Shown: positions 1,887 to 44,243 of the stretch, in pieces
Position numbering within the stretch: position 1 is the stretch's first letter
Layout of the letters: each line of letters begins with the position of its first letter
From: Deltaproteobacteria bacterium
GTDB lineage: Bacteria; SAR324; NAC60-12
Assembly (NCBI GenBank): GCA_002685535.1
Contig: NYXK01000211.1
Span: forward strand, 28,803-92,802
Reading direction: 5' to 3'
DNA length: 64,000 nucleotides
Notes under the pieces: model-generated
The model's database searches: none
What the model saw: the letters and a program-made list of their open reading frames with translations, nothing else
Told to the model about the DNA's origin: nothing
Made by a program: the position numbers and the translations under genes

Positions 1887-2138
1887 AATTACAAAGATGT
1901 ACTACTTATTTTCCATCAACCAACCGAGGAAATAACCACCAAAACCAGCAGACCATGCACGCGAAATGTACGCTCATCTATGTCCAGTCCAGCTGATGCA
2001 CTGTTTGTAATAACAGCCAAACCAAACCAAGCCAAGCAACGCACCCAGACCGCATGGAAATCTATGATACATTCCTCCTTCTATCCCACAAACACACCCA
2101 AGGCACAGCGTGAGCACGACCCGAAAACGCATTCGTAA

Positions 2139-22349: not shown

Positions 22350-24158
22350 ATGTCTCACTCTTTCTATGAGCCATTAGACCCCAACGGAGGCATCCGCCTC
22401 TTGATTCTCGAACCTGGCCAGGATGACAGCCACATCAGCTGCCGCCTGATCTCGCACAACATCAATCTCAATCCAGATTACAAAGCACTCTCATACGAAT
22501 GGGGCTCTCAGAGCATTCAGAGTTCCATCTCGCTTGACAGCCAAAGCTTCCAAGTAGGAGAGAATCTCTGGTGGGCATTGTGGTATCTGAGAAAAGATGG
22601 CGCGGTCACGAGACTCTGGGTTGACGCTCTTTGCATCAATCAACAAGACGAAAAGGAACGTGGTCATCAGGTCTCCATGATGGGGAGAATCTATAGGAAT
22701 GCCGACGTCATCTGTTGGCTCGGCAAGGGAGAAGACCCCAAGCATATCAGAGCGATGGAACATATTTGCGACTGGATATTCATAGAAAGCCGAGCCAAGG
22801 CTGGAGACCGAAGTACCCACCCAGAGAGCTCGACGACAAAGAAGCGCCATAATTCAATACAGGGTGACGACCAGATGTTAGACTCTTTCGCCTCGTCGGC
22901 TTCCGATGATCTCGCTGCCATGGTTGATCCGCCTGCAAAAATGCAGCCAAGAACAGTACTGAAGTCTGGCGTAACTTCCATGCTTCAAGACGAACATGCT
23001 TACTCAAGGTCACCATCTCATTTCGTGGAGGTCGAAGCAATATGTTCGCACAGCTACTGGAGACGAACATGGATTATACAAGAATTTGTACTGGGAAAAT
23101 CTATAAGAATTCGTCTGGGATCGTATGAGATTGGGGAGAGTGACTTCCAGCTTGCTGTGGAGCAAGTCCTACTTCAGCGCTTTAACAGCAAAGGATTGCA
23201 GCTTCTGGACTCATTTAGAGTTGCTTACTTGAGAAGCGATCGTCTAAACGGCCATCAGCTACCACTGATCAGACTTATTGAACTGAGCGAGAAGTCTTCG
23301 TGCCAAGATCTCAGAGACAGGATATATGCTATGATTGGTCTCGCAAGCGACTGTCAGAATGGCGAAATCATTCCTGATTATTCGAAGTCGTTTTGTGAGG
23401 TGTTTGAAGACGTGGTGCTTCGGCACTTCTATCCTTCCGACCTGGATAGGCTTGGACATAGCTGGTCGACTGTCTATGCGAGTTGCCTTGTGCAGAGAAT
23501 CCTCTGGAGGACCTCTGAGAGTGTATCTGAGGTCGATGAGGCGATTCTGGCACAGAAGTTGTTGGATACAGATTTATTGAGTATTCATGGGAAAAGTTGT
23601 GGTACTGTGAGAGAACTCAGCGTGCCTCAAGATGGTATGTGGTGGGCTCATGCTGGTCTTGTCAAGCCAATACGTTCCAGCTCTGCCAGTGATGAAGAGG
23701 TCTATACCAAATTAGACTTGATCAACCAGCAGGGGGTTGAAGGGAATGATGTAGAGAGTCGATCATTTCTGACGTTCACCTGGCCTTGGATAGTGTGGGC
23801 TTTAAAGTCAAAGAAGAGGGAGGAAGAAGAATCACAACCTGAGAGAACAATTATCATGCGGGCTGAGATAGGAGAGAGCTTTCAGTGTTACGTACCGGGA
23901 TGCACCCAGATCGGAGACAAAATCTGTAGATTCGTCAACTCCAGTACGGTTGCAGTGCTCCGACTCTCGGGGAAATCCACCACCCTGATTGGAAGGGGGA
24001 TGATACTGGATCGCTTAGGTGACCTAGACATTCTTCTCGAAGGAGAGACTGGGTCGTCTGAAAACTTCACAGATACCATGTTCAGTCGAAACAACCCAGT
24101 GCTGTCATTCAAGCTCACTCCAGCTGAGCTTAAGAGTCTAACATCTCCTCACTATTGA
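22350..24158 (+). CDS. HET-domain (het-6-like) heterokaryon incompatibility protein
   Basis: YEPL..IRLLIL.PG, YKALSYEWG, LWVDALCINQQDEKERGHQV, VICWLG, YWRRTWIIQE and DLRDRIYAMIGL motifs. Confidence 0.92.
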   Translation: MSHSFYEPLDPNGGIRLLILEPGQDDSHISCRLISHNINLNPDYKALSYEWGSQSIQSSISLDSQSFQVGENLWWALWYLRKDGAVTRLWVDALCINQQDEKERGHQVSMMGRIYRNADVICWLGKGEDPKHIRAMEHICDWIFIESRAKAGDRSTHPESSTTKKRHNSIQGDDQMLDSFASSASDDLAAMVDPPAKMQPRTVLKSGVTSMLQDEHAYSRSPSHFVEVEAICSHSYWRRTWIIQEFVLGKSIRIRLGSYEIGESDFQLAVEQVLLQRFNSKGLQLLDSFRVAYLRSDRLNGHQLPLIRLIELSEKSSCQDLRDRIYAMIGLASDCQNGEIIPDYSKSFCEVFEDVVLRHFYPSDLDRLGHSWSTVYASCLVQRILWRTSESVSEVDEAILAQKLLDTDLLSIHGKSCGTVRELSVPQDGMWWAHAGLVKPIRSSSASDEEVYTKLDLINQQGVEGNDVESRSFLTFTWPWIVWALKSKKREEEESQPERTIIMRAEIGESFQCYVPGCTQIGDKICRFVNSSTVAVLRLSGKSTTLIGRGMILDRLGDLDILLEGETGSSENFTDTMFSRNNPVLSFKLTPAELKSLTSPHY

Positions 24159-24330
24159 GGACCTACACGCAAGAAACTAGATGTGATCTACTCTTAGAGC
24201 AGTATTCATTTTGTTAATCCTAACATTGAACCGAATTATCTCAATCATGGCAATGCCAGAGGACCAAGCTTTGCCGGGGCAATCTTTGGGCCATACTTCA
24301 AAATCACATGAACCTGATGGAAAAACTTGT

Positions 24331-24948
24331 TCACCACGGCAATGGCCCTTCTTTGTTTGAGTAAGTCCCATTCTCCCCGTCCGTCTCAAGTGTCGCCAGC
24401 CTAACAGCATTGATGGCACCACTTTCCGCACTCTCGCTCGGTCCGAAATCCGTCAGGTTAGTCGCCACGAGTCCAGGACAACAGAGATTGATCTTGAACC
24501 TCTTTTCCTCATGCTTCTTCGCATAATTTCACCAACATATTCATCGCTGTCTTCGTCCTCCGATAAATTGGCCAGTTCCCTGCCCAAACCTGCCTCCAAA
24601 CGATCCAAGCGAGCTCGACATGAATACCACGCGAGGAATCTCACTCTTCTCAAGCAAGGGCTTGAATGTTTCCAGAAATTGAAACGCACCGAAGACATTG
24701 GTATTGTACGCCTCAAGCATCACATCTCTGATGAAATTCTCCCCCGGCACGTACTCCTTGTCATTGCCGATCCCATCATTGTTGATCAATACATCCAGCC
24801 GGCCAAACTTGGAAGCCACAATTTCTCCGGCAGCAGTGATGGACTCGTCAGTCGAGACGTCGATGGTGATAGGCTCGACAGACAGTTTCTCGGCTTGTAG
24901 TTTTGCTGCCGCCGCTTGCCCACGTTCGGGGTTGCGACTTCCCATCAA
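24331..24948 (-). pseudogene. Short-chain dehydrogenase/reductase pseudogene
   Basis: GRLDVLINNDG (normally NNAG), NTNVFG and VVFMSSSLGS motifs. YRRTK and KINLCCPGLVATNL...EGPLPW* lie in shifted frames (two frameshifts near 24520-24590). No N-terminal TGxxxGxG is visible. Confidence 0.85.
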
Positions 24949-25811
24949 ATATTGCCATATTTGCTCTTGATGTATGCTAGATTTTTTTTTTCAAGGCCTG
25001 TGAACCATGATGGAGCGATTCTTTCGAGATGTGGATTTTCAGCGTGGTGGAGCCTTTCATCCTTTTTGTGCAACTGTGCCTCCAGCTTCTGTCATGATGT
25101 CCGCGGACTTTTCTTTACCTGCGAGAGAATATTTTCGCATGGCATTTTGGGTTCAGTTGGAGATGGAAGCTTCAAAAACAAGTGTCGTCGTATGTGACTG
25201 ACAGTCTGGAAATCTCATTGGCCCGCTTCTTAAAAGATCGCCAAGTGCGATAGACGATATACGTCAGAGCCAGACTTTGAGCATATCTCTGGGGCAGCAT
25301 GATTGTGTACGAGGACTGAACTTGGAGATAGAGACTTCCAAATTCAGTCAGCCCATGTTCTAGTTAATTTGATCACTGTTATATGCTGACGAGCGTAACC
25401 AAATGTAGAAGTCCTGGCCTGGTGTTACCGCAGACTCGCGTCCTGTTCACCCTCAATTTGTCTGGGCTATTCGGAGTAGAGCATCAACGAAGCTGCTTGA
25501 AACATCGATACATGCGCTTTCGATTTGAAGACAGTTTCTTATTTTTATTTTGAAATGACGGCTAATCTGAGCTGTAAGCCTGGATCGATCAGCTCGACTT
25601 TCAGGCAAGAACTAGTCCATCCCACCTTTGACCAGGATCAAAGAGAGAGGGTCTCGAATATCAACAGCATAATACATTCTACAAGTTGCTCGACGAGAAA
25701 TGGAGAAACGAATCCCTGAGAACCAGTCTACCAAGACTCTCAAAGAAGCGAACTATGCCAGGGTCTCCATGTTACCACATCCGGGTCCGGAGCCATCTAA
25801 TGGTCTCAATC

Positions 25812-25828
25812 GCGGGATCTGATCCCGC
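25812..25828. promoter_or_regulatory. CGG-N9-CCG Zn2Cys6 site upstream of PRODH
   Basis: Perfect 8-bp inverted repeat GCGGGATC-T-GATCCCGC; the same motif recurs in other cluster promoters. Confidence 0.7.
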
Positions 25829-26157
25829 ACCATGACAACACTAACTGATTCGCTCCACCACCGCGCCGGATAAATTCAACTTCTGAATGTGCCACTGAAG
25901 ACTGGATCTAATCAATGTACCTAGGCCGTTAGGTGTCGTGCATATGCACGATAAGGCGAATGTGGCATTGATAGGACACTTTACCCCTCCACCTGCCATC
26001 TGAGTGCAAGAACCATTGTAGTGCGGGGCAGGAAAGCCGACGGCGGAATGTCAACGGCCAATGATGGGAAGATGTTGACGGCTGTACTTGGACAGACATC
26101 TTCTTGATATTGAAGCCATTGGAACACAGCATCGACCTTCTATTCTTCATTTTCCGG

Positions 26158-27668
26158 ATGAAAAACTCTCACCAAAAGCTCGAGATGAGGGTTTCTCACA
26201 CAAGTCCTCTCATGAGGATACTTTTTTCATCTGCTCGAAAAGCGTCTCCGGGATGTCGACTGTACTCGCAGTCTCACTCTGCGACAACCGGTGCAAACAG
26301 TTTGTCAATGTCAGCACGAGTCGCAGAGTCTCTTACCTACAAAGAACTTCCACCGCTCTCTCTAATGCCAACACATCTCCTTCTCCGATCTTACCTCATA
26401 ACTTCCATCCTATCATCTCCCCGTCTGCTCAACCTTTCCATGCCCCTCCTCAACATCATTGCCAACTCGCCATCTCGCTTCCTCAATCCAGACAAGAATC
26501 CTGCGATCGGCTTCCTGGTCCGCAAAATCATATACGAGCACTTCGTTGCAGGCGACGGTGAAGCAGCTGTCATGAAAACGGTAGCTCAGATGAAACAAGT
26601 GGGATTCCAGGGGGTGATCTTGGGATATGCGAAAGAGTACGCGGCTGATGAAGGGGAAGTGGGCAATGAAGAACTAGATGTCAGGAGGTGGAAGGAAGGA
26701 TATGAGAAGACGATGGATATGATCGGGCCTGGGGACTTCATGGCTGTGAAGTAAGCCATTCTCCATGTATCTGGATTAAGAAGAAAAGTGGTAGCATATA
26801 CGACAAACACTGACAATCAGGCAGATTATCAGGTGCCGGAGCATCAACGCTCTCTGCTCTCGCCAACAAGCAACAACCACCACCTCAAATGTGGACCGAG
26901 ATGCTCTCACTGTGCCACGCAGCAAAAGCCAAAGACATCAGGGTATGGATCGATGCCGAGCAGCAAGACTTACAACCCACTATCGACGAATGGACCCTCC
27001 TGTTGATGCGAGAATTCAATCGCAACGGCCAGGCATTCATGTACAACACGTTTCAAGCATATCTCAAGGTTACGCCAAGAAACATCCTCAAGTACCTGAA
27101 AATCGCGCAGGATGAAGGCTGGACCATGGGAATCAAGCTTGTGCGAGGAGCATATATTGCTACCGAAAGACGAGACTTGATTCACGCTACCATCGAAGAG
27201 ACACATGAAGCCTATAATGGCATCGTGGAGGATCTGTTGAGACAACAGTATCCAGGTCTGGATGAGAAGAAGCGATACCCAGAAGTCGCGCTCATGCTTG
27301 CGAGCCACAACGAGACCAGCATCAAGAACGCATACTCGATTCAGAAATCATTGATCGAGCAAGGAAAGCCTACCATTAAACTCGAGTATGGACAACTTCA
27401 GGGAATGGCAGATGAGATCAGTTGCGGCCTCCTGCAGCTCTGTCAACGAAGTGGAAAAGAAGCAGCTGAGAAACAAAATGAGATGGAAGATAAGCTTCGA
27501 CCGAGGGCGTTCAAATGTTTGGCTTGGGGAAGTACGCAGGAGTGTTTGCAGTTCCTATTGAGGAGGGTAAAAGAGAATGGGGATGCGGTCAGTAGGACGG
27601 GAGCCTGGGTCATGGGTTTTCGGAGTGAGATCTGGAGGAGAATGAAGGCGAGCTTTGGGGCGGATTGA
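26158..27668 (+). CDS. Proline dehydrogenase-family flavoenzyme (Put1/PrnD paralog; possible hydroxyproline dehydrogenase)
   Basis: HFVAG, ILGYAKE, WIDAEQ, YNTFQAYLK, GIKLVRGAY, ASHN, QLQGMAD and LLRRVKEN motifs. Intron 26751-26824. The start may be 26158, 26185 or 26212; the N-terminus looks like a mitochondrial presequence. Confidence 0.93.
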
Positions 27669-28080
27669 GGATTTTATTTGGATTATTAATTTGCAACTAT
27701 GAAACGCAGTGTCTTGATTTTCGGCTTTTGCCGTGCTGGACGACGCCGTCGATGTTCTGCCCAGTATTGTCCTGTCTTCCGAGTCTCACAGTTCGCTTGT
27801 GAGTTTTGCAGCAAGTAGTCGATCCCTAATAACACGTGCCTGTATCTTCTTCGTCCATCGAATTCTGGTCTGACGACGGACGACCAACTCCGAATCTGTG
27901 GTCTCTCCCATGCCGAACCATCTGTTGTTTGCCAATTGGAAGAGCTGCCCCATGGAAACAATGGCGATGAGGTGCTGGACTGTCACGGATGCAGCATTGC
28001 GCAGCCACCAGCCGGATGAAGTGACATGTTGAGCTACTGTCACTCGAAGAGACATGAGACATTGTCGTTGGCTACCAGTC

Positions 28081-28806
28081 TCACAAACAAATATCGAGCT
28101 CTCTGCGACATTCTTCCGGCATCGAGCCCTCCTCCCAGGAGCATGGACACCGCTGGAATTGGATCTCAGGTGGTGTCCAGTCTTTCCATCTGTCCTTTTG
28201 CTGGAACCTTTCCATTTCCTTTGTCTTCAAATCCGCCAGACCCTTCTCCATCACGACCCGCAGTGCTTGCGATCGATCTTCGACTCCAGCTTGCTTGGAA
28301 ATTGGCAGTTTTTGTATCGTCTCCCGATGGACGATGATCAAAATCCGCCGCACCGAAGGGGTGTACCATCCCAGCAGACGTGAACAAGCCCAGTGACTGG
28401 CCTTGAACTTCTCAGGATCCTCTTCCCATTCCCACTCAACGTTATACAAAGAGCTCATGTGCAAATTTTGGGTCTTGAATTTGAGTAGTGTTGAAATCAT
28501 GCAGTGGGCCTGCAGTCTCCAGGATCTGGCAATATAGTCGACGGAGAAGTCAATCCAGCCCCAATTACATCTGTGTGGCAAATCAAAGCAGTCTCTATTG
28601 GTGTTGAATCTTCTATGCTTTGGAACAAATTCGAAATGCTCCAAAGCTATGCTTCTGGCTTCAGCATTGATGAACACAGCGCTCGGGATTGGCTTGGCCA
28701 TGCAACAATGCAAAAGGCGGGGGCGAGGGAGTGTCCAAAGCCATATCTTTCGTCGCAATTCTAGCGGCAATCGACGGAAAGGGTGAAACTCTTTCAAGTC
28801 ACTCAT
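28081..28806 (-). CDS. 2EXR-domain protein
   Basis: N-terminal FHPFRRLPLELRRKIW..TLPRPR motif, INAEARSIALEHF and WIDFSVD. Confidence 0.75.
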   Translation of the reverse strand: MSDLKEFHPFRRLPLELRRKIWLWTLPRPRLLHCCMAKPIPSAVFINAEARSIALEHFEFVPKHRRFNTNRDCFDLPHRCNWGWIDFSVDYIARSWRLQAHCMISTLLKFKTQNLHMSSLYNVEWEWEEDPEKFKASHWACSRLLGWYTPSVRRILIIVHRETIQKLPISKQAGVEDRSQALRVVMEKGLADLKTKEMERFQQKDRWKDWTPPEIQFQRCPCSWEEGSMPEECRRELDICL

Positions 28807-29036
28807 AGCGATTTCCGAACAAGGCGAAGTTCTTGAAGGATTGTATGAGGGGAAAATAATGTTGGTAAAGGATTCCCAGGGTTGAGGAATGAGCTTTCAG
28901 TGCGATGCTGAGTCAGGCAGAAGTTAGGCGAAAGTCTGCCGACTTTAATTTACAGGTCACTGAACGAAATGTCAAACAAAGAATGCTCCAGACCGGTCGC
29001 CAAAACGTAAAGAATTGGCAGTAGACCGTCCAAAAT

Positions 29037-29939
29037 CTACTTTGTGCTTCTCTCTAAGATCTCCTTCAACCCGTTATCCTTACCAAGCTCCTGGTCTAGC
29101 CTTCCTCTGGGAAGCTCAAACGTCTCTGCTACCCTCCCATAACTTATCCCACCTAGCTGGACAAGTGGTCTTAATATCCCCAGATCTGTCTCCCCATCTT
29201 CACCCATCGCCTCCGTCTTAATCCAAAATCTCGTCCCCTCAATAATAGCCAACGCACCCACGGCCTCTCCCTTCTCCCCTCTCCCATGATAATCCAATTC
29301 CTTCATCTCCAATAACTTGCCCTCAATACTAAATACCGCTTCCTGGACTCTTTCAGGTTTCACAGTCTCACTCTTAGCAGGTGTCAACCCCGATAATTCC
29401 CACTCAGATACTTCGTACGGTACATCTAACGAGGTGGCGTTCGCAGCGTGGATGATATTCTCGGTTACCAGATTGATTACGCATTCTCCTGTCTCAACAA
29501 GATTCCGTCGTGTATCCTTGGGACGAGAGGGTCGAGCGGAGAATCCGACTACGAAGGTTGGTGGGTCGTGATCTACAATCTGGAAGTAGGAGAAAGGAGC
29601 GAGATTTTTGGTTCCGTCTAATGATATCGTGCTGATGAAGCTTATGGGCCGGGGAATTGCAGAGACTAGAAGCCGGTAGTTGGCGAGCATAGGCTGGGCT
29701 GAGGGGTCGATTGATATATGCGTTGAGGATGTCGAGGGAGGAGTAGATGCCGGGGTGTTGATGGATACTGTAGATAGAGTTTGTGGCGATTGCTGCCCAT
29801 ATCTCCAACCTGGGGATGGGGCTTGTGTTGTTTTGATCGGAAGCGAGGGGTCGAAAGGAGGGCGATGTGCTTCGATGGCTTTGAAGTCTGCGTACTTCGA
29901 TTTCAGAACAAAAGGGCTCGGACTGGCTTTACTTGACAT
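29037..29939 (-). CDS. Flavin reductase-like FMN-binding (flavoredoxin-type) protein
   Basis: YRLLVSAIPRPISFIST, NLAPFSYF, KDTRRNLVETGECVIN, VSEWELSGLT and LVQLGGISYG motifs. Start uncertain (29939, 30020 or 30161). Confidence 0.88.
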   Translation of the reverse strand: MSSKASPSPFVLKSKYADFKAIEAHRPPFDPSLPIKTTQAPSPGWRYGQQSPQTLSTVSINTPASTPPSTSSTHISIDPSAQPMLANYRLLVSAIPRPISFISTISLDGTKNLAPFSYFQIVDHDPPTFVVGFSARPSRPKDTRRNLVETGECVINLVTENIIHAANATSLDVPYEVSEWELSGLTPAKSETVKPERVQEAVFSIEGKLLEMKELDYHGRGEKGEAVGALAIIEGTRFWIKTEAMGEDGETDLGILRPLVQLGGISYGRVAETFELPRGRLDQELGKDNGLKEILERSTK

Positions 29940-30270
29940 CCTAGACTGCTGGAGCTGTACCCTGGACGGGCTCTTCGCTTGTACTATGAAGTTCGAACGC
30001 CATCGACCCTTTGTTGACATGGCGCGAACTTCTTTGGTGGTCTCGTGACTTTGGCGACCAGGGTGCATGCGATGGGCTCGAAATTTGGAAGAAGTAACGA
30101 AAGTTGCCGACAGTGTCAGGCTTTGGCAATTTGGTAATGTTTGTCGAGCAGCCTGGGTCATCTTAAAAAATAAATAATTGATTTTGTGGGTTTGACTCTC
30201 GAAGGGCGTGCTTGCGCCAGCTAAGGTGGTCTGGTCTATCTCGGCGTGGGCAACTCCAACATTCTCGAGT

Positions 30271-30287
30271 GCGGAAAGCGGTCCCGC
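30271..30287. promoter_or_regulatory. CGG-N9-CCG site upstream of the flavin reductase-like gene
   Basis: GCGGAAAGCGGTCCCGC. Confidence 0.6.
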
Positions 30288-30589
30288 GGACCCACTCCCT
30301 GATCGTCTTGTTGGGATTGATCGCTCACGTGTTTCTCGTTTTGCAATTTTGATCGACCATAGAGCTCTGATACGATAATGGGTCTTCGAGATGCCTTTCA
30401 GACGCACTGAGTGAAGATGGGGTTTCGCGGTTTGACGAAGGTGATGAGCTGTGGTTCGGGACCATTACTCAGCATTGCTTGGAGAAAAGAGATGAAGACT
30501 CCCTGTCAATAATGATGCTCAAATGAGAATTTCCAGAGTCACCGTTCCATATCAATGGAGAAATACGCTCAAAGTACTCGTCTCCTGTC

Positions 30590-33173
30590 TTATTCAAGGT
30601 CTGGCATATGCGAGCTTGCCCGGAGACCATCATTCCACATCCACTCACTTCCCCCAAGGTCGAGCCCGGACGGTTCTTCTAAAAAGTCGAAGTTCAATCC
30701 ATCGATGGCAGACTGCATTGTATCCGGATGCAACACACCTAACTCATTCTCTCCTGTGTTCGTCCAAGACCAAATCATGTCTTGTTCAAGTGGCACACCG
30801 GGACTTGGCATTGAGACATCCCCCTCCAACGATACTGGTTCGGGAACGTTGACTGGGGTAACTTCTTGTGGTATCTTTATCTTCTGACGCAGGCCATCGA
30901 GTTCTTGGAGGTCTTTCTTGTATGGACCAGCGACAAGGATACCTCGCATCATCATCTCGTCCAAGAGATTGAAGGTCTTACGAAGATCCCATTGCTCCGT
31001 AGTAGCTGGTGTGATAATATCGACGAGGATCAACACAAAGGCACTGGCGAACATTGACTCAAGATCAAACGGAAGGAAAAAATCTGTCCCGCATTAGCAT
31101 TCAGACTATTATATACTGGAATTTCTGCAGGAACTTACCGACAAGATTGTGGGCTCGCAACCCATCTATGGTCTTCAAGACTTGCAGAGCTGACTCGACA
31201 CATACCCGAAGTAATCCAATTACCGCATCGGAAAGTTTCATTGGCAGGTTCCTACTAGCTAGCTTTGTCTCTAGGAGGAAGAAAAGCACAGGTCGGATGG
31301 TGAGAATGGTACACTAATCTCGTCAGCGCATGCCTGACTCTCACCAATGGCTGCGACGAACCTGATGGTGGAGTAGGTGCAGACTCGCTGCAACTCTAGA
31401 GATTGTATTTGATGATCTCTGTAGTTCTATTTTCATGTCGTTGTTCAGTATTATCGAAGTGTCAGCAAGACGCCTCAGAATGGATTGAATTGCGGAAATA
31501 AATCTTGTGCCGAGTTGACGCTGGTGCCCAAGACCGTACACTACTGTGCTGGAGTAAGTCCACATACAGCGAAATTTTCAACAGAAGTCTTCACCCACCA
31601 TTTAGTATTTGCCCTAGTTGCGAGGAAATGTCAGTGTGGAGCGCCATCACGAGCCCGGATCCTTGGCCAGGATCAATAGCGGGCATGGACAGCGCAATAT
31701 CCTCATCATGCAAAGCAGGCGGGACACCAACAAGACACGACAAATTTCTTTCGATTGCATAGACAGTCCACCATAGTTTTGTACGGTGCTCGAATTCATG
31801 CTTTGTGATGCGCTTTGCGTCAAACCTTCGGTTTAGGCCTTGGGTCAGGCAGATTCGGAGGGCTTGTCCAGCCTGAAAGATACATTAGCGCCTTTGATTC
31901 TTGACTGGCCAGAATGTAATACAGACGTGATCGTAGGCAGCTCGTCTCATATCCATTGCCTGCATGAACAATGCCAGCATACAAAGTATTTCGATGGACA
32001 CGATTGGGTCTTGGCGCAATCGATGAGGGTCTGGTAAAGCCTCCACGGCACGGCCAAAATAAGCTGCACCAGCTGGACCTGATTTACCAGCCTCGCGGGC
32101 CAGTATAGAGGTCCCAAACGCAAAGACTAGAAGCATTTTGATCTGCCACAAGTTCGATTGCGAATGCTGATCTCGGTAGAACTGATGAAGGCTAGCGAGA
32201 AACACCTCTTTGTCAAAGAGATAGTACAATGGACTCAACGTGAAATGGAGAGTATTGGTCAGATACTCTGCATAATCTTCAGGGGGTAAATCGACACCGG
32301 AAATGTCGAGGCTGGGATGCTTGAATGGGATACCGTAGATACCATCCGGTATGGGGATGACATCGTGAAGTCCAGGACCAGCAACCGCATCGCTGATGAA
32401 GCTTCTGATCCGACGACTGAAAGACCAGGAGGAACTGTGGCCAAGTCGTCCTTCACAGGAGATGAGCCAGTGTTCGATGAAGTCAACTCGAAATTAGGAG
32501 GGCAACGCACGATACTCATCTCCAATCGCGTCGGGAGAGTTCTGATCACTGATCAGGACATTTCGACGGTCGCTCTACCAGGTATCAGCCCCAAGCTGTG
32601 ACAATGGGCACCACGGCACCAACCAGGTCGTCATGCGATTGAATAAAACCATCGTTTCCATCGCTCGGAGTCAGATGCCTGAGTGAGCTTCCCAAATTGG
32701 AAGGTTCAGTTCGCAAAACGTGCTGGACCTGTCCACTAGGAGTACCTGATTCTGTTCTCGGCCACCTTGGCCTCACAGCCACACTCTCGTTATGAGAGGA
32801 TTCGGCGTGAGTTACCACACCTGACCGGGGGGAGTTTTGTTGTACAGGTCTATTGGCAACACCAGAGGCACGGCTTTCCAGCTCTTGGAGATACCTGTAC
32901 GATGTCTCAGTACCCCTCACACGAGTATGCCGGGGCCACCAACTCCGCTGTCACAACAATCTTCCTTTGCTTCTCGCCGAACACACAGTCTCGTCTTTGA
33001 GATAAGCAATGCTGGCACGGATGATGGCCGCTACATTTGATCTTGCGAGTCCTGCATCGCTGGCAGCTGTGCTGATCAGCATCAATTAAGAGGACGATAC
33101 TGGGCGATGATCTTCCTCACGCGTTCAGAGTCTTCTTCTTTTTCCTGATCGGGGTTATGGTAGTTTTATCCAT
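30590..33173 (-). CDS. Zn(II)2Cys6 transcription factor, Put3/PrnA-like (multi-exon)
   Basis: After splicing it reads ACQRCRTRKIKCSGHHPCQHCLSQRRDCVFGEKQRKIVVTAEYLQEL (Put3-like KIVV..YLQ linker). Also LGHSSSWSFSRR, GQALRICLTQGL, LWWTVYAIER (fungal TF domain) and an acidic C-terminus. All exons join in frame. Confidence 0.9.
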
Positions 33174-33839
33174 GCCGTGTTTGATGTCTCATGAGGTTGC
33201 AGATTCGCCGATCGCAGTGAACAGTCGCCAGAGAGTGGGATGAGACGACATCTAAGGTTCGCTTGCCATGCGCGCTAGCATCACGTGGCGAAGCTCTCAT
33301 TTTGGTGTCACGTTTCGGGTATTTCAATTGATCTCAACACCAAAGACCAGGAGCTCGAAACATTCAGGTGAACATTATTTCGAGTCTCGATGACGTCTTA
33401 GTGAAGAAAGAGTCTCAATAACCATTTTTAGATACGATGCGATGTCAATATCTCAGTCCTAAACATCCCGCGGTATGCACACAGCCTCAGCCTCCAAACG
33501 AACTGGGTGCAGCCTATTCGAGCAGTGTGGTTATATAATCTGCATGCCTTTTAAGGAGAATTAACTTGAAATAAGAACCGTAAATGATCCATTGGCTATG
33601 AATCCTCGAAGACTTTTCCAGAAACATCAAAGAATGTGTAAGCTAATACAGCGAGCATTGGGTGAATTTTGATTTGTTTCTTTGGCAAGGAAAAACAGCC
33701 CTGAAACGAGAGACAATTGTTATCTTGATCTAGAAATCTGGATCTCGATGACTTCTCATGCTCAACGGACTCTATAGGTATGAAGCCAGAGTATATTTAA
33801 TTGTTGACACATGCATTAAAGCGAGCAGATTCCTGATGA

Positions 33840-34353
33840 ATGCAAGACCGATGTGAGCTTGAGATCCAGGTGGTAGACTCCAACAGCGTCGAAGCTGGCC
33901 TCGTCGGTAGATTGTTGCCACTGATGTCTTGTCAGCATTTAGGGCTGACCTCTCAATGCCGTCAGACGATATTGCCGAGAGAACCTCCCTCGGTGTTCGT
34001 GAAACTTGACTTCACGAATAGATTCTTCTCAAGCATCTATCAGAAGCTTCGCATAGAAGAGGAATCCTTACAAAATGCCTGTTATCTGCCAACAGACGAA
34101 TGTATGCTGTCGTAGCTCAGCTGCCGAAGATGCATCCTGATTGTGGGGAGGCAGTGGCCTGCTTGTGCTGCATCGTGGCTGGCAGAGCTAACGGAAAACA
34201 GGCATTGACGAGTGGTTGGCGCAGTTCGTAGGACTCAAATATAGTGCAGTGTTCCCAGCCTCCTTCTCATCCCGCATGTGGAAAGCCGTTGGAAGAGCAA
34301 AAGAACCTGCATGGAATAACTACACTATCACTTTCATATTCTTTGTCCAATAG
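33840..34353 (+). CDS. Possible two-exon small gene or gene remnant
   Basis: A clean intron at 34102-34201 (GTATGC..GCTAAC..CAG) joins an open ~138-codon frame; no family recognised. Confidence 0.3.
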
Positions 34354-35293
34354 GCGGTATTCCAACAGGCTCTATGGGAGTGTAATTAAAAAATATTGAT
34401 CAACTCAGCTCAGCGGAAATTTTGAGGCATGTGAAGATGTGGTGTGAAACATCTTCAATTAATTTTGGAGAATTGAACTTCGAAGAAATAGTGAACTAGC
34501 GACAGAAGCGCCCGGAAGAACTCCAATTTCAGGCAAGGATAGTGGACACTATGCGCCCCGACCCGACAAGCCGAGGGGGTCTAACTCCTGAAGGCATGGG
34601 GTCCAGCGCTTCTGCATAGTCCTTGCAGGGTTTACAGGGACTTCACCGTGGCCTAAGCCAGCGGCCAAGCTGTAAGCGAATTGATTCGATGTTTCCTACG
34701 AGAACAGAGCCTTTCCTTTATCGACTGGAAGTGTGTCTTCTCAAATCATTGTAGAATTGGCGGTCTCAAGACTCAATAATTGTGGGTTAGATCTGCTTGA
34801 AGATGCTTGTTTCAGAAATCTTACCATGAAATTGTCCTGTCAGACATATCACAGTCAGCTGGAAAGTGGGTGCGGGCAAGTGTAATGGGTCGCACAACTC
34901 TTATCTCACCGTACGGCTGAAGTTGATTCTCGTGCACGATGGCACAAGTCGCCCTTTGCATGCAGCAGCACTCTCTTGTCCACGTATTAGATCGCCGTGC
35001 GAATCTGCCTGAAGTCTTTACTTCTGGCGGTATCACCGCTGCGCCGCACACTCCTCCTGCAAGGCATGCAAGGTACTGTTGCACCCCCGGTAATCCGCTA
35101 CGGGACAGCCCCCATTTCGTCTATGGACCACATGAGAAATCATCAGACAGGCCATAAAGTGGGAACGACGTGAGATCGGCATAATATAGAGGGGTCCGCT
35201 TCCCAGAAGCTTTTGAACTACTGACATCTTCTGGTGTCCCACGGGAAGGTTTTCGAGAAGTTCGACCGCAGTTTTGAAAGTCAACATCAAGCC

Positions 35294-36809
35294 ATGTCTC
35301 TTGCGACAGCAACCTCGGCGGCCAGCTTGGCGCTGATTACTCCAAGCTTGACGACGACTTTCATGCCAAAGATCACAGCCTGCACGGAGAATAGAGTCAC
35401 GATGCTGGCAAACCGAGCTTTTCAGATATGGATGAATGCACCAGTACCAGTACCAGGAACGACCTTCACGGATTGCTATCCAAGTCAATTCATAACGAGC
35501 CTGCTTCTCTCTGCTGGAAGCGTCACTCAGCCCGCTTTCGCTCCGCTGATATGCCCGACACATTATTCGGCTGTCGGCCCGTATACCTCGAATTATATCG
35601 CTTGCTGCCCAAGGTATGTTTATTTTAACAGGTATCCAAAGCGTTGGATTCTAATTTCACAGCGAGTACTCGTTCGCGCAGCCAGAAAGCACAGTGTTCA
35701 CTGACCGCCCAGCATTTGGCGGAACGTGTTATAGCAACATTGATATGGCAACACCTGTTCTGGTAACGGCCTACGGATCTGCCAGTGTCACGGCGACAAG
35801 TTATTTCACGGCTACAGTCACAAATGCCCAGGCTTACGCCTACCCAATAGACGGATATGCTTTTGGGGTTGCGGAGATTGAGAGCAAGCTCAGTACTGGT
35901 ACAAGTACTCCGACAGCATCTCCAGGAAGCTCGGCAGGTGCAGCTGCTGCGACGTACACTGTGAGTACTCGCTTGAATCATCTCTCAAAACAGTCTTTAA
36001 CATGTGATAGGTTTTGGCAGGTGAAAACCCGGCTTTCACACCCAACTCCGTTACTGCGAAGGGAGGAGATACAGTAGTCTTCCGATTCACCTCTGGTAAC
36101 CACAGCATCACCGAATCCACCTTCGATCATCCTTGTGTCAAGCTTGCAGATGGAATAGACTCTGGATACCAGCCAGTTGTCAATACTCTGAACCCGTCAG
36201 ACTTCTCGTTTGACGTAGCCCAAAACACGTCTCAATGTGAGTTCACAGAGTGCAGTGAGAATAGGGCTTCACTAATGACATTCAGGGTTCTACTCCAAGC
36301 AGGCAGGTGAATGTGGGGATGGAATGACTTTCGCGCTGAATCCAACCAACGAGCAAACCGAGATACAATTCCAGCTAAATGCAGTCTCGCAGAACGGCAC
36401 CTCGACCGAGGATTCAACTGGCACTTCTACTGGCGTCAAGGTGGGGGCCAGCATAGGAGCTGTTGCTGGGGCTGCCCTGATCGTCGGTCTAGTCTTTCTG
36501 CTCTTCCGTCGTCGGCGTCGGAGCCAAGGAAATGCTATTGATGAAGCTATCAGGGATGAGACAAATGGAAAGGTTGGAGGAGGGTCGAGCTATACCGACA
36601 CGGAAGCAGGCAAATCGCCACTGACAGAAGTTAAACCACATGTCCCTCCGAAGGGCGAGGAGCTTCATGGATACTCTTCTCCTTCTGAGCTAGGTGTCAA
36701 CCGCGATCCGGCTGAACTTGCGTCAGAACAATCCCCTGCCGAGATGTATAGTCCACATGAGTACCATCCTAACGCATATCCAATGAGACCGAGCGAGCCG
36801 CGATTGTGA
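35294..36809 (+). CDS. Single-pass surface protein: Cys-patterned domain + degenerate cupredoxin-like domain + TM helix
   Basis: Introns 35614-35662, 35961-36010 and 36237-36285. Motifs CYPSQF, ICPTHY, IACCPS; FTPNSVTAKGGDTVVFRF.SGNHSITESTFDHPC; WFYSKQAGECGDGMTFALNP; VGASIGAVAGAALIVGLVFLLFRRRRR. Confidence 0.85.
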
Positions 36810-37001
36810 GTATCTACTTGTTGCATTTAGAAAGGAGCATGGTGGGTATTGATAATGGAGCTGCATGGGCATGCATTGTATTGGCGTCTCTGTATATGGT
36901 CATGTTCAATCTACGATATTTAATACTATCCCTTAGAATCTAGACTGTCTTCTCTTATGTAAGTTAGGTAGCGGAGGCAGAAACACACACGCTTTCACAG
37001 A

Positions 37002-37650
37002 TTATTCCAAAGCCACCAACTCCATCTCCACCGATACCCCAGCAGGGAGTCTCTTCGCTTCTAAACTGCTCCGGGCAGGTTTATGAGGAAAGTACTCTGC
37101 ATACACTTTATTGAACTCTGCAAAATCGTCTAGGTCGGCGAAAAAGATCTATCTTCACGTCAGCTGACATCTTCCATTCTCAGCTCGCCCACAGGCATAC
37201 CGTGACTTTGACGACTTTGTCTAGACTAGATCCTGCCGCTTGGAGTACAGTCTTTGCGTTCTTACAGACCTGGTGTGCTTTCTCGGCAACGGATCCTACG
37301 ATCAATTCGCCTTTGTTGTTAGCTGCCATCTGGCCTGAGACCCAGACTAGGCCTTGGGCTTTGATTGCTTGAGACTTTTCGAGTTAGATCTTTGACTGTA
37401 TTTGGATCAGGGGAGTCTACATATGGTCCAATTGCTATTGTTACATCAGCGTCGATGAACATAGAGGGTGAAGCGATGTTGGCTTACGAGGAACACCATC
37501 CTTGGTAAAGATTGGGGTGATGGCGGAAGACATAAAGCGATAGTTTGAGTATGGTATGGAGGATTTGGTAGTTCTAGGAAGCCGAAATTTTTGAATGAGG
37601 AGAGTTTTCGACGTCCGACGAACTGATAAAACTGTTGATCTCTCAAGCAT
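37002..37650 (-). CDS. RidA/YjgF/YER057c/UK114 imine deaminase (Mmf1/Hmf1-like)
   Basis: Missing from the ORF track. Four exons splice to MSSAITPIFTKDGVPPIGPYSQAIKAQGLVWVSGQ...FNKVYAEYFPHKPARSSLEAKRLPAGVSVEMELVALE*. The catalytic Arg (PAR) is present. In-frame ATGs at 37650 and 37533. Confidence 0.92.
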
Positions 37651-37811
37651 TGAAAGCAAGTCGATTTAGCTGATAGCTTCTTGTGGAACATAAACAACAG
37701 TGCTGAAACTGTCATTCATAGAATAAGACACCATCTACCGGTTTGCCGTAGTAGCCGGCGGGTATTAGTCCACTCGTGTCTTCTAAGCTTTGTGCAGGTT
37801 AAAATCTCACA

Positions 37812-37828
37812 GCGGGAAAAGCTCCCGC
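37812..37828. promoter_or_regulatory. CGG-N9-CCG site in the RidA/P5CDH divergent promoter (RidA-proximal)
   Basis: GCGGGAAAAGCTCCCGC; same GCGGGA-N5-TCCCGC frame as the PRODH site. Confidence 0.7.
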
Positions 37829-38230
37829 TCATTTGAAGTACCAATCACAGTTCCGGATCATGTATTATTGAGAAGAGACCCAGTAACGTTTCGAGCACCT
37901 CGAACGTACCAAAATTCAGAACCAGAGACTTGCAGTGGTACGCTTCTTACCATGGGCTCATTAAATTCAGGGAAGTTTAGTAGATCCTATTAATTTCAGA
38001 CCAGCCTAAGCGAGGAAGGATCTGAAGTAAACATTTCCTCGAAATTTCTCCCGCTGGCTCAGATCGTTATCCCAAGAACTCTTCCAGACTCGAAGATTGT
38101 AGATATTACCATCGATATAGCCTTCCAACCATTCAGTTCCTCTACGGCCGATCTTGTCGGACCAAAGCTTAGCTCACGGGTTTCACGTCTCACGTGATGT
38201 GGTACTCCTTGAGAGCAACTCAATTACATC

Positions 38231-38463
38231 GATAAATAACAGAACGCAGCTGTGTAGGCGCTAAGAGACATCTACCACTTCATTCAATTAAGAGATAAGC
38301 TCCGTGCAACACTAATTTTGACGACATCGGAGCAGGCCACAATGCGAAAGTGGGGTGGTTGTTACATTCGGCTTTGGATCCCGCTCTTGCATGAAGTCGT
38401 ATCTGAGGGATGCAGTGCAGATAACATGACATATAGGTCCAATTATCTTATGTCCAATGATAA
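38231..38463. promoter_or_regulatory. Cluster of GATAA/TTATC (AreA/Nit2-type) sites upstream of P5CDH
   Basis: GATAA at 38231, 38294, 38420 and 38459; TTATC at 38443. Confidence 0.5.
38369..38384. promoter_or_regulatory. CGG-N9-CCG site (P5CDH-proximal)
   Basis: CGGCTTTGGATCCCGC. Confidence 0.6.
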
Positions 38464-38584
38464 TCAGACCTGTTAATTACGCGTTGATGATGAGTTTTTT
38501 GCCTCTGGAAATGTAGTTTTGCTTTTTAAGATATCCAATCCCGAGACGATCCAGGTGAAATATTGCTTCTCATACAACTTGATC

Positions 38585-40537
38585 ATGTCAAAAAGAAGCG
38601 CTGTTCAAGGCTTCAAGTCTAGTAAGATCCGATCTCCATGGTTTAGTCGCAGTCATTTACTCAATCATGAACGTCGGCATTGGCTGTCTATGTATTCGAA
38701 ACCGCACTTTGTGAACGAACCTTCGGTACATCTTGTCCCCTCAACCGTCCAATTAAATGTGAAAGCTGACAGAATTTGCAGCCAACATATGAAAAGAACA
38801 GTCCAGAAAGAGATGGGATCACGAAAGCTCTACAAGATCTCAAATCTAGGCTTCCAATCAGCATTCCCCTGAAGATCGGCTCGAAAGAGGTTCAGAACAG
38901 CCCTCTGTATCCCACCGAAAACAAGTACTGAGACTCACTATCAGGTCACCAAGTCCCAATCATTGACTCAAATCAATCCATCCCGCCACAAAGAAGTAAT
39001 CGCAGAATGGGCTCCTGCAACGGCCTCGGATGTCAAGAACGCGATCTCGTCTGCTTTGGCCGCCAAGTCATCATGGGAGAACACCCCATTCGAACAACGA
39101 GCAGCAATCTTCCTTCGCGCTGCAGAGCTTGTGAGCAAGAAGTATAGATACGAATTGATGGCTGCAGTCATGATGGGGCAGGGGAAGAATATTTGGCAAG
39201 CTGAGATTGATGTTGTAGCTGAGACTTGTGATCTTCTTCGGTAAGTAGTGGACGTGAGAAGGCAACCTGAGAGCAGAGGCTCATTTTGAGAAGTTTCAAC
39301 GTCCAATGTGCAATGGAGTTGTTCAAAACACAACCGGCTGTTAACCCAGCAGGGATGGTACACTTCTCTCTCCCATACCATATCCCCAGTGACTGAAGCT
39401 AACCTCTCCTAGTGGAACCGCCTCGAGTACCGCCCACTCGAAGGATTCGTTTATTCAATCTCACCCTTTAACTTTACAGCATTAGCTGCAACATTAGCAT
39501 ATGGCCCACTTCTGATGGGAAACGTAGTAATCTGGAAGCCCTCTCTCTCAGCTCTTCATAGCTCCTGGCTACTCCATCAAATCCTGTTGGAAGCTGGTCT
39601 GCCCAAAGATGTAGTTCAATTCGTGCCAGGAGACGCCGAAGAAGTCACCTCCGCCATTATCGAAAGCTCCGACTTCGCAGCACTGAATTTCACAGGCTCT
39701 ACAGCAGTTTTCAAGTCTCTCATCGCAAAGATTGGCGTCGCGACAGGCAAGGACAGATTCTTGAACTACCCCCGTATTGTTGGCGAGACAGGTGGCAAGA
39801 ATTTCCATTTGATACACAAGAGTGCGGATATTGAGAATGCTGTCAACAGCACCATTCGAGGTGCATTTGAGTTCCAAGGACAGAAATGTTCAGCGACGTC
39901 TCGAGTCTATGTACCGGAGTCCATCTGGCCCGAGTTCAAGCGAGACCTTCTTGCCAAGACTGAGAGCATCAGTGTTGGCCCGCCTGAGGAGTTCCAGAAC
40001 TTTGTCAATCCTGTAATCCATGAACAGGCATTTGATAAGCTTGCCTCTTTCATCCAAAAAGCGAAGGACGACCCGAAACTGACACTTCTTGCTGGCGGGA
40101 AGGTAGAGAAGGATGTTGGCTTTTTCGTCCATCCGACCATCTATCAGACAACCGATCCACAACATGATATCATGAAGACAGAATTGTTTGGTCCTTTGTT
40201 TGCAATTTATGTCTATCCTGATTTGGCATGGACGAATATACCAAAACTCATCGACACCACGACTCGATATGCATTGACTGGAAGTGTTTTTGCAAGAGAT
40301 GTCGAAGCAATCACGTTCGCGGAGAAGGAAATGAGGCATTCTGCTGGCAACTTTTACATCAATACGAAGAGTTCTGGTAGTGTGGTTGGGCAGCAGCCGT
40401 TTGGAGGGATGAGAGGTAGCGGAACGAACGACAAAGTTGGGTCGGTCAATGTCCTGAGTCGGTTTGTAAGTGTCAGAGCAATCAAGGAAGACTTCGAGGG
40501 GACGAAAGACTTCAGATATCCTAGCAACGAGATATGA
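38585..40537 (+). CDS. Delta-1-pyrroline-5-carboxylate dehydrogenase (ALDH4; Put2/PrnC paralog)
   Basis: GQGKNIWQAEID, WNRLEYRPLEGFV..ISPFNFT, NFTGST, GETGGKNF, FQGQKCSA (catalytic Cys), ELFGP and VVGQQPFGG motifs; four 5' introns splice in frame. Confidence 0.95.
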
Positions 40538-41347: not shown

Positions 41348-43098
41348 TTATTCTCTCATCGTGACATCCATACGGTGGCCCTTGGGGCTAATCAAAAAGA
41401 AATTGACCATGGTCATTGCGTCTTCATCATTCATACTGCCTTCCCAGCTTCAAGCCTTTGCATTCCCTAAACAGAAACGCCAGAGCATGCCGTAACTGCA
41501 TGTATGCGAGATGGTAACCAAGACAAGCCCGGGAGCCAGCTCCGAAGTGTGAGAACGTGGCCTTGCTCTCAGGGCCCCCATTGAGGAAGCGATCAGGGTT
41601 GAAGCTATACCTCAATTAGTGAAAGCACAAAAAATACTTGGGCATGTACATATAAAAGAATAGACACGTTGCCTCTTAAGAGCTACTGTAAAAAGTTGAC
41701 TTACGTGAGAGGATCTTTGAAGACAGCGGGGTCGCGATGCATGGTGTATGCTTGAGACGAGACAGTTGTCCCAGGAGGGATAACGAATCCATCAATCGTA
41801 AGTGGGCGATCTTTTGGCACTGTGCGAGGAAGACTTCCAGGTGCAGCAGAAAACAGTCTCAGAGCTTCTCGAATGAGTGCGTTAATATAAGGCAGTTTCT
41901 CGAGATCTGCATCCCTCCACTCAGGTAATAACTCTGCGACTTCAGCCTCCAGTCTGGCTTGAATCTTGGGGTTCTTTAGGATGGACCATATCAAATATGT
42001 ACCGTTGACAGCAGTCGTTCCTGAGCCAGCCACGACAAGGCCAGAAGCTTCGATTGGAAGCATTTCGTGGGTGAAAATCGAGCCCTCCTTCTCGGCATCC
42101 TCAAGAACCCCTTTAAAGATGTTTGCCTTTGCAAGGTTATCGCGTTCCGAAGCGTTCTCGAGGACCTTATCTCCGTACGCGAACACGCGTTTGTTCTGGT
42201 TGGCGAGTTCGGGAAAGAGGCCAAACATTTTGAGGAAGTCGAAGAGGCGAGGTATCTCGGAGCGAAGACCGTTGGCTTTTATGACAGCTTCGATATCTTT
42301 GACAAAAGCGTTACGCTAGTGGGAGTCCATAGTTAGTATCTCTGCTTTGTGAAAGCTTTGTAGCTTGTCTTTTCCAACCACTTTGCAGACCTTGGGTACT
42401 ACCACACGACGAAAGAAAAGTTGGAACGAGACAGCGCTTACCTCTCCAGTCTTGACCATGTTGAAAGGCTCTCCAAATGCAATCTCACCAATGATATCAG
42501 TAGTCATGAGAGTGAACCATTTAAAGACACAAGCCGTGCTGCATTCCGCTTCCATCTTGATCTTTTGTACTGCTTCGCGTGCAAGACTGATGACGAGATC
42601 TTCCCAATTCGTACGTAAAGACGATAAAGCTAAAAGGTCGAGCTAGAAGTCGTCTTTTGAAGGTATGGATCTTCGGATCAATGACCGCAAAAACATCAGG
42701 AGGTCCGCCCGGTCGGAATTTCGTGTACCAGTCCGACTTCAAATACCCATTCCCAATCTTGTGAACCTCGTTGAAGACCTCTGGACTCGTGAAGGAGACT
42801 TCGTTGGGCGAGATTAACACAACTGGGCCATACTTCTTGTGCATGTCATCGATGTAAAAGATTCGGCGAGCAGTCATGACATAGTATTTCTGATGCAGGT
42901 CCGTATACCTGGCGAACCACGGTCCTGGAACTTTTGCTAATGGGCTTGTTTCTGTGCGAATGATGAGCTTGAAGAAGTCAGTCCAGATGCATTGGGTGAG
43001 ATCTGTCAATATGCTAGACTCAAATATAAGACATAAAAAACAACGAGGCCAATCGCTACCACTGGTGCGACACCCAGTTTGGCCACCAGAGCGTCCAT
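41348..43098 (-). pseudogene. Cytochrome P450 pseudogene
   Basis: PGPW, AGSGTT, EALR and FGAGSRACLG motifs are present. However, the first donor reads TTGAGT instead of GTGAGT, and there are frameshifts near 42630 (RPFS/LSSLRTNWE) and near 41440 (before MVNFFLISPKGH). Confidence 0.85.
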
Positions 43099-44243
43099 CT
43101 TGGGTTTAAAAAAAAGAAGGGAAAAATGAGAATAAGTTTGACAAGAAGAATGGCTCAAGTCTCCAAGAAGACCTGAACTTTTGACTACTTGCTGCGAGAG
43201 GACAATATGATTTCATAAACGCCCAGCCTGGGCCAGTTTCTCCATGGAGAAAGACAAGAACCGCCGAGCCGAAAATGGGGTGCAAGACCGACAGAGCAGC
43301 TGCAACATTGGATAATGTCTTTGATGGGCGATCCATATCGAGTTTTTAATGCCGACGGGCGGGGCCATCTTTGTCGATCTCGCTGCAAGGATATGTATGA
43401 TATGATGCGTTTCACAAACCGAACTTCAGCAGCAAGCAACACACACACTAGGTACGGGCCTCGTGTTCTTTTACCCTAAATCGGTTGTCGCCACGTTTGT
43501 AACCTGAGTGTGAATCGCAGTACGAGTTACAATTTGCCTGACAACTTTACTTAATAACCGGCAAGATGCAGATTTGCTAAACTTTTGCTCTAGATGTGGG
43601 TTCTAGAGTCTAGTACTTATACGTATAGCAATCGGCGCCTAGTGAGGCTAGCCGCACTGGACAAGGTTCGGATCTTTTCCGCTCGCTGCCCTTGGTATGG
43701 CCCATTGTGTATCAAAGCCAGTCCGTGGAGATCAACTTTACCGCTTGATGTGTTACTTGTAACGTTGAATTGTTGTGGTTCACTACACATGTGTCCCTGC
43801 CGTGATGTCAACAGATGCACAATGATCCACAAACCACCATCTTCCATCATCCATACATCCCTGGCTGGCTCAACGCCACGACCTCTCAAAACTCTCAATA
43901 GATGCTGATCAATGGATTGGGGTAGAATTGACCAAACTTTGAACTCTCCTGTCAGACTTTCACGCACGTACAGGGTAATGCTGAGACTACTGGCGATGAA
44001 AATGAAGCTGTCCTCACAAATCTCGCGGCTATTCTACGTATCTTCTCCAGCCCTGTCTCTCAAAAATCCCCTCTACGGCTTCACCACCATAAGGTTCTCC
44101 ATCCCCGTCCACCGGTGATGCCCACTAACTCGCCAAGGACCGTCTCCGAGTTCCGCAAATGACTCTCCTCGCCAATTTGATGCCTCAATGCCAAAAAGCT
44201 ATCATGCGGGGTGTGAGATTTGGTGAAAGTGTAATTCGGTCTG

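Follow-up and report, generated by a model that had tools for sequence, protein, structure and literature searches.

A candidate Put3-like regulon for substituted prolines, built on non-canonical proline catabolic paralogues, in DNA from a Cadophora-like fungus

Three described proline catabolic systems lie close to the locus reported here. The Aspergillus nidulans prn cluster (prnA, prnX, prnD, prnB and prnC) encodes a Zn2Cys6 activator, a proline oxidase and a Δ1-pyrroline-5-carboxylate (P5C) dehydrogenase, and its activator PrnA binds CCGG repeats (PMC5983819). In yeast, Put3 acts with Put1 and Put2 through an inverted CGG site, whose spacing is given as N10 in PMC5729217. Animals degrade 4-hydroxyproline through PRODH2 (HYPDH), ALDH4A1, GOT2 and HOGA1. 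We describe here a proline-type catabolic cluster at coordinates 25800..40537 of a 64,000-nucleotide stretch of contig NYXK01000211.1 (hereafter the window), which encodes a proline dehydrogenase (PRODH), a P5C dehydrogenase (P5CDH), a flavin mononucleotide (FMN)-binding split-barrel protein, a RidA-subfamily deaminase and a Put3-like transcription factor (TF), and which is probably an accessory inducible regulon for the catabolism of ring-substituted L-proline.

The locus shares with the prn cluster a linked Zn2Cys6 activator, proline oxidase and P5C dehydrogenase, but it has the FMN protein and RidA in addition and no prnX (OCD/mu-crystallin family) or prnB-type permease among the open reading frames (ORFs) scanned for families, which were 25 + 109 ORFs of window 13000-64000; the region 1-13000, read from the ORF list alone, contains two large housekeeping-type genes. 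Its PRODH and P5CDH also belong to other clades than those of L032 and L037, two Aspergillus/Penicillium-type prn clusters that stand in for the A. nidulans sequences, and its TF is 23-24% identical to their PrnA-type factor, with a different Zn cluster and no CCGG repeats in any of the four upstream regions scanned. In L037 the genes follow the order known from the A. fumigatus prn cluster: 6-phosphogluconate dehydrogenase, a TIM-barrel gene, P5CDH, PRODH, prnX and the regulator. With the yeast system the locus has in common a Put3-type DNA-binding domain and linker, an inverted CGG site, and a PRODH and ALDH4 pair, but the window spacing is N9 and the genes are clustered; moreover, yeast-type PRODHs (L047, L056) keep a pocket tyrosine that is a cysteine in the window enzyme. 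The animal pathway is similar in having a small residue at that site (Ser in PRODH2) and an ALDH4 with a GS anchor loop, a likeness of residues, and differs in that the window cluster has neither aldolase nor transaminase among the scanned ORFs and has a dedicated P5CDH paralogue and regulator. Every part comes from a known family; what sets the locus apart is how the parts are combined, the N9 spacing and a probable change of substrate. A full-text literature search, covering few subscription papers, turned up neither this cluster nor any fungal hydroxyproline dehydrogenase or pathway.

Species of Cadophora, Leptodontidium and Rhexocercosporium provide the closest homologues (for PRODH exon 2, 81-88%), and judged by these relatives the source of the DNA is a Cadophora-like helotialean fungus.

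PRODH and P5CDH paralogues

The first-pass annotation regarded the locus as a second proline-type cluster and proposed as a check a phylogeny against canonical Put1 and Put2. In quick tree searches with SH-aLRT support only, neither dehydrogenase groups with its canonical counterparts, the Put1/PrnD and Put2/PrnC clades. The window PRODH, compared with 80 loci from a metagenome scan (most bacterial loci and fragments of <200 aa being left out of the first tree), belongs, with 100% support, to a clade on a long stem, apart from the Tyr-type fungal PRODHs and from the prn-type enzymes of L032 and L037. The P5CDH belongs to a 17-member group (99%) that excludes the prn-type enzymes and in which the named members are those found in clusters. 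The canonical P5CDH clade includes the related groups Scytalidium and Neoarthrinium, and in Xylona a canonical enzyme occurs together with a non-canonical one. Because both window enzymes lie outside the canonical clades and Xylona carries both types of P5CDH, a canonical Put1/Put2 pair is likely to be present elsewhere in the host genome; the phylogeny thus agrees with a second cluster, but the companion pair is deduced from relatives. In one metagenome, a PRODH locus of the Cys type and one of the Tyr type are mutual best tetranucleotide matches (r=0.87), a weak hint that the two types occur in one fungus. The Pezizomycotina contain at least four more clades of non-canonical P5CDHs, and Coleophoma has two non-canonical copies.

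The PRODH model (Table 1) has an alternative in-frame ATG at 26158, includes the 428-aa protein P0001 as a substring and matches the Cadophora gregata PRODH at 82%. Its Cys420 occupies the site equivalent to Tyr540 of E. coli PutA. This equivalence is based on sequence spacing, Cys420 lying four residues before a conserved Gly and 15 before the first Arg of an RR pair; the HMMER alignment has a gap there. Cysteine predominates at this site among close homologues (113 of the 119 with the motif, the others being four Phe, one Ser and one Tyr), and the 44 loci judged to be fungal have 25 Tyr, 11 Cys, three Leu and three other residues, with two cut. Tyr540 of PutA enforces a preference for proline over hydroxyproline (Ostrander 2009, as cited in PMC3718742), and a cysteine, with the enlarged pocket that it would give, is a hint that fits a substituted proline substrate.

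The P5CDH retains the catalytic motif GQKCSA and matches the yeast enzyme 4OE4 with E=7e-134. Its anchor loop reads GS, a feature shared with human ALDH4A1, whereas GA is found in the yeast and canonical fungal enzymes; this is a second active-site hint that fits a substituted proline. By a check of composition, not a predictor, the N-termini of both enzymes resemble presequences, that of PRODH being Arg/Ser-rich and acid-free and that of P5CDH Arg-rich and acid-poor.

A Put3-like regulator and CGG-N9-CCG sites

The description of the regulator as Put3-like is borne out by an ungapped alignment of its Zn cluster and linker with those of yeast Put3 (E=1.3e-6; the next best among solved Zn clusters is 0.0045). 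Scanning every CGG/CCG spacing from 0 to 19 revealed CGG-N9-CCG in all three upstream regions examined, those of PRODH, the FMN gene and the divergent RidA/P5CDH pair, for a total of four sites (Table 1), and CGG-N10-CCG in one of the three, upstream of PRODH. The upstream region of the TF has no site and was omitted from the shuffle test. In 2000 shuffles of the three regions, 20 gave any one spacing in all three with four sites, and none did so with the three extra bases that the four sites have in common (an inner TC and an outer C); this extended pattern occurs nowhere else in the 64 kb, and it is post hoc, since those four sites were its source. The generic CGG-N9-CCG is not enriched across the window, with 11 occurrences against 8.7 expected and 25 of 100 shuffles reaching 11. 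Neither L001, which has almost no upstream DNA, nor L002 shows the strict site before PRODH, and for the palindromic site at 25813 it should be noted that an RNA-run contig begins at 25738, upstream of it.

An independent test is provided by L039 (L039:2-10565), a locus from another fungus for which the site pattern was fixed beforehand. It contains a Cys-type PRODH in the same clade as the window enzyme, a Put3-like TF 37% identical to that of the window, an amino-acid permease, and the E1 and E2 components of a 2-oxoglutarate dehydrogenase, of which the E1 is diverged. There are six CGG-N9-CCG sites in L039 where 1.02 are expected (0 of 200 shuffles), five of them upstream of genes and of the type TCGGA-N7-TCCGA. 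CGG-N9-CCG is the predicted binding site of the Put3-like TF of the cluster, and the proposal of a distinct regulon gains from the conserved non-canonical paralogues and from one type of promoter site before the PRODH, FMN, RidA and P5CDH genes.

Cluster membership in the window and in other fungi

All five genes are open from start to stop in exon models with GT-AG introns, and each was assigned to a Pfam family. The earlier statement that there are five intact genes in about 15 kb holds for the frames, but the genes are not contiguous, two unrelated genes lying inside the span. That RidA and P5CDH are divergent on a shared promoter is correct, with 1051 bp from ATG to ATG. Transcript support comes from contigs of RNA run X2, run X1 resembling DNA; the X2 contigs splice out the PRODH intron and four of the eight TF introns exactly as modelled, so both genes are transcribed. 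The introns of RidA and P5CDH are predicted from the DNA. The low X2 contig cover over RidA and P5CDH was not used as evidence, because contigs cannot rank genes. A single RNA-run contig at 28972-32450 spans the TF and FMN genes, which are on the same strand, and reflects overlapping untranslated regions or read-through.

Table 1. Coordinates in the window of the cluster genes, predicted sites and intervening genes
Feature	Coordinates	Strand	Comment
PRODH paralogue, Cys clade	26185..27668	+	469 aa; exons 26185-26750 and 26825-27668; PF01619
Cys420 codon of PRODH (PutA Tyr540 site)	27516..27518	+	placed by sequence spacing
FMN-binding split-barrel protein (flavin-reductase-like; flavoredoxin/NbaA-like)	29037..30161	-	single exon; PF01613; core member
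Put3-like Zn2Cys6 transcription factor	30590..33173	-	719 aa; 9 exons, 8 introns; core member
RidA-subfamily imine/enamine deaminase	37002..37533	-	126 aa; 3 introns
P5CDH (ALDH4) paralogue, non-canonical	38585..40537	+	577 aa; 5 exons, 4 introns
CGG-N9-CCG, palindromic	25813..25828	.	345-372 bp upstream of PRODH start codons
CGG-N9-CCG	30272..30287	.	111 bp upstream of first possible FMN-gene ATG
CGG-N9-CCG, palindromic	37813..37828	.	RidA/P5CDH divergent promoter; 280 bp upstream of RidA ATG
CGG-N9-CCG	38369..38384	.	216 bp upstream of P5CDH ATG
2EXR-family gene, intervening	28081..28806	-	241 aa; Pfam assignment; no CGG-N9-CCG upstream
Ser/Thr-rich single-pass membrane protein gene, intervening	35294..36809	+	start and exon borders approximate; no Pfam family at cut-off; no CGG-N9-CCG upstream

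To judge linkage we looked up 30 proteins and used consecutive accessions or locus tags. In nine genera, which represent three fungal classes, between two and four of the core genes are linked. In Cadophora gregata the accession endings are 803 for PRODH, 804 for the FMN gene and 808 for P5CDH, so that PRODH and the FMN gene adjoin with no 2EXR-like gene between them; Coleophoma cylindrospora has FMN 511, P5CDH 514 and PRODH 516, C. crateriformis FMN 366, TF 368 and PRODH 370, and Phlyctema TF 228, PRODH 229 and FMN 236. PRODH and P5CDH are 2-4 apart in four assemblies of Diplocarpon and 2-3 apart in Neopestalotiopsis. The FMN gene adjoins PRODH in all six Seiridium assemblies, five of which have P5CDH three from PRODH, and Pestalotiopsis fici has P5CDH 561, TF 562 and PRODH 564. 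Penicillium malachiteum has FMN 835 next to P5CDH 836, and in Aspergillus carlsbadensis the TF and FMN genes are two locus tags apart. Orthologous loci include those around KAK0115803-808, RDW77511-516, KAK6075957-960, ETS76561-564 and KAJ5718835-836. Ten TF homologues were looked up: four are linked by accession, one is apparently on the same contig as PRODH and P5CDH matches, and five are unlinked. Six contigs that, judged by length, recur in all three match lists are a weaker sign; such co-contig matches served as a lead and not as proof of linkage, since the P5CDH and FMN genes of Exophiala bonariae share a contig at a distance of 178 locus tags. In the metagenome scan none of the 80 loci falls in the window's 28-member PRODH subclade; a P5CDH was found at three of the 80, the FMN gene at none and RidA at two, both bacterial. 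Another Cys-clade PRODH, at L004:2508-3335, has a P5CDH directly after it.

The conserved core is thus PRODH, the FMN protein, the TF and P5CDH, and the cluster-conservation search suggested earlier succeeds for these four, but not for RidA, the linkage of which was seen in the window alone. The P. malachiteum P5CDH groups with the clustered enzyme of Coleophoma at 96% SH-aLRT (tree members P0134 and P0137), and this grouping, together with the patchy spread, suggests that the cluster may have been transferred horizontally.

The FMN protein has an ambiguous start (30161, 30068, 30020 or 29939) and matches PDB 3BPK, PDB 1EJE and the NbaA nitroreductase 4Z85 (E=1e-29 to 6e-17); ESM Atlas matches gave family names only. 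It resembles flavoredoxin-type proteins in sequence but is fungal and has no partner monooxygenase in the cluster, the only oxygenase nearby being a cytochrome P450 at 41500-43105 without a shared site. Arg-rich, acid-poor N-termini of presequence type occur in nine of 16 homologues examined, and the protein is probably mitochondrial. A prokaryote scan with the FMN alignment gave 34 pattern matches, none of which was confirmed.

RidA keeps the arginine of the PAR motif and a C-terminal glutamate (equivalents of Arg105 and Glu120 in the alignments), and its nearest solved relative is PDB 1JD1, yeast Hmf1. Its N-terminus is not presequence-like in composition and it is probably cytosolic. The gene includes a 14-nt micro-exon at 37421-37434 (-) that gene callers may miss. 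RidA is the cluster member least demonstrably conserved. In Seiridium and Pestalotiopsis the interval from PRODH to P5CDH is taken up by the FMN gene and the TF, with no annotated slot for RidA, which may be outside these clusters, unannotated or absent; in C. gregata the accession numbering leaves room for three genes between the FMN gene and P5CDH. The suggestion that RidA belongs to a conserved regulon therefore stands for co-regulation in the host genome, of which its own upstream site is the best evidence, but not for conserved membership. At two bacterial loci (L059:6721-7068 and L066:6852-7199) some 2.5 kb separate a RidA gene and that of a monofunctional PRODH.

Two further neighbours were excluded as cluster members: a short-chain dehydrogenase gene at 24180-25100 (-), divergent from PRODH and apparently broken by frame changes and an in-frame stop, and the cytochrome P450 gene (-), which adjoins P5CDH. 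Other genes nearby are a HET-domain gene (22161-24158), an Ada-type regulator with Zn-binding and AraC domains (51234-52013) and a Velvet-domain fragment (53214-53744).

Probable substrate, pathway and alternatives

The paralogue pair, the enlarged pocket and the L039 oxoacid dehydrogenase together argue for a substituted proline as substrate and for a product that is not plain 2-oxoglutarate. The L039 enzyme suggests a function dedicated to a substituted 2-oxoglutarate, since a private 2-oxoglutarate dehydrogenase would be superfluous in the breakdown of plain proline. 4-Hydroxy-2-oxoglutarate is oxidized by the 2-oxoglutarate dehydrogenase complex; the literature search gave no match for this. 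4-Hydroxyproline is the commonest such substituted proline, and trans-4-hydroxy-L-proline is the leading candidate, carrying most of the weight that we give to substituted prolines although on its own it is a tentative assignment; the remainder is left to 3-hydroxy-, dihydroxy- or methyl-proline and the like. A. fumigatus is reported to grow on hydroxyproline (PMC2526178). Plant hydroxyproline-rich glycoproteins, suggested in the first-pass annotation, may be a source of substrate.

In the scheme that we propose, an imino acid would activate the Put3-like TF, which would bind the sites seen before the four enzyme genes. The mitochondrial Cys-type PRODH would convert the substrate, as the enlarged pocket suggests, to hydroxy-P5C, and the P5CDH paralogue would oxidize the ring-opened semialdehyde to hydroxyglutamate. 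The FMN protein would fill a variable 'back-end' slot, occupied by other enzymes in sister clusters, and would most likely use NAD(P)H to reduce a side product or one formed further downstream, flavin supply for PRODH being less likely. The arginine of RidA binds 2-imino acids, and RidA genes cluster with those of FAD amine oxidases in bacteria (PMC4433059). The need for a 2-imino acid favours action after hydroxyglutamate over action on a cyclic imine. P5C-type imines are not the 2-imino acids bound by that arginine, and with the N-terminus not being presequence-like it is unlikely that RidA acts on P5C itself; the first-pass idea that RidA handles a cyclic imine is thus doubtful. RidA would instead be a co-regulated cytosolic add-on, hydrolysing a 2-imino acid or enamine downstream of hydroxyglutamate, with uptake and transamination provided by genes elsewhere. 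The gene content also permits a long shot, an aldolase-free hydroxyproline route in which 4-hydroxyglutamate would be dehydrated (by PLP-dependent elimination or via the 2-oxoacid), RidA would hydrolyse the 2-imino acid and the FMN protein would reduce 2-oxoglutaconate to 2-oxoglutarate; the five-carbon skeleton would then enter the tricarboxylic acid cycle without glyoxylate. In that case the Cys-PRODH and Put3-like N9 front end would be a common fungal module with swappable back ends, an ene-reductase here and an oxoacid dehydrogenase in L039.

Several observations weigh against a substituted proline. No aldolase, aminotransferase or permease family is present among the scanned ORFs, so there are no hydroxyproline-specific back-end enzymes in that part of the window, and the anchor-loop serine of P5CDH is found in other non-canonical P5CDH clades too. 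The PRODHs of the prn clusters L032 and L037 (L037:9950-10849) have Leu at the Tyr540 site; loss of the tyrosine is therefore not diagnostic of hydroxyproline use, and we reject it as proof of specificity. L039 is a single locus from another PRODH subclade. In Botrytis the PRODH of this clade, BCIN_12g00550, is regarded as the ordinary enzyme, and its listed P5CDH is on a different chromosome, which also shows that some members of the clade lack the cluster. Candida Put3 is not induced by hydroxyprolines (PMC10621835). A. fumigatus Afu3g02300, which to judge by a shared annotation name alone is likely to belong to the Cys-PRODH clade, is barely induced on hydroxyproline versus YPD (log2 +0.41), with prnD at +0.21 and prnC at +1.22 (PMC2526178); the YPD reference may itself induce these genes.

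The lack of back-end enzymes, the Leu of the prn-type PRODHs and the Botrytis annotation, with the closeness of the TF to Put3 among solved Zn clusters and the one CGG-N10-CCG upstream of PRODH, would also suit an ordinary or redundant L-proline regulon, in which the FMN protein supplies or recycles flavin for PRODH and RidA is incidental. Canonical prn-type PRODH evidently tolerates a residue other than Tyr, and there is a precedent for flavin supply in the riboflavin transporter MCH5, which is a target of Put3 and through which Put1 obtains FAD (PMC5729217). This explanation is nevertheless unlikely, though a serious competitor: both enzymes lie outside the canonical clades, that of P5CDH including relatives of the host, Xylona has both P5CDH types, the tetranucleotide match hints at both PRODH types in one fungus, and the patchy spread across classes and the dedicated oxoacid dehydrogenase of L039 fit an accessory pathway. 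Less probable still is a detoxification module, directed against a toxic cyclic imino acid (thioproline, azetidine-2-carboxylate, dehydroproline or pipecolate), in which RidA would clear 2-aminoacrylate released downstream, for example from cysteine. The catalytic arginine of RidA, its own site, its bacterial clustering with FAD amine oxidases and the absence of a permease among the scanned ORFs, as expected for unwanted uptake, are all compatible with it, but a dedicated P5CDH as a fixed member implies a glutamate-semialdehyde-like product, conservation is least demonstrable for RidA and the sister cluster L039 does have a permease.

The locus offers a candidate substrate-gate change in PRODH and a predicted CGG-N9-CCG operator for an uncharacterised Put3-like family, and it gives a context for a widespread FMN protein that is usually labelled 'nitrilotriacetate monooxygenase component B'. 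The Leu of L032 and L037 indicates that the textbook tyrosine is not universal among proline oxidases, and the phylogeny is a warning that many fungal genes annotated as PUT1 or PUT2 are paralogues. The carrier genera are largely root endophytes and plant pathogens, and the cluster may bear on their use of host cell-wall glycoproteins.

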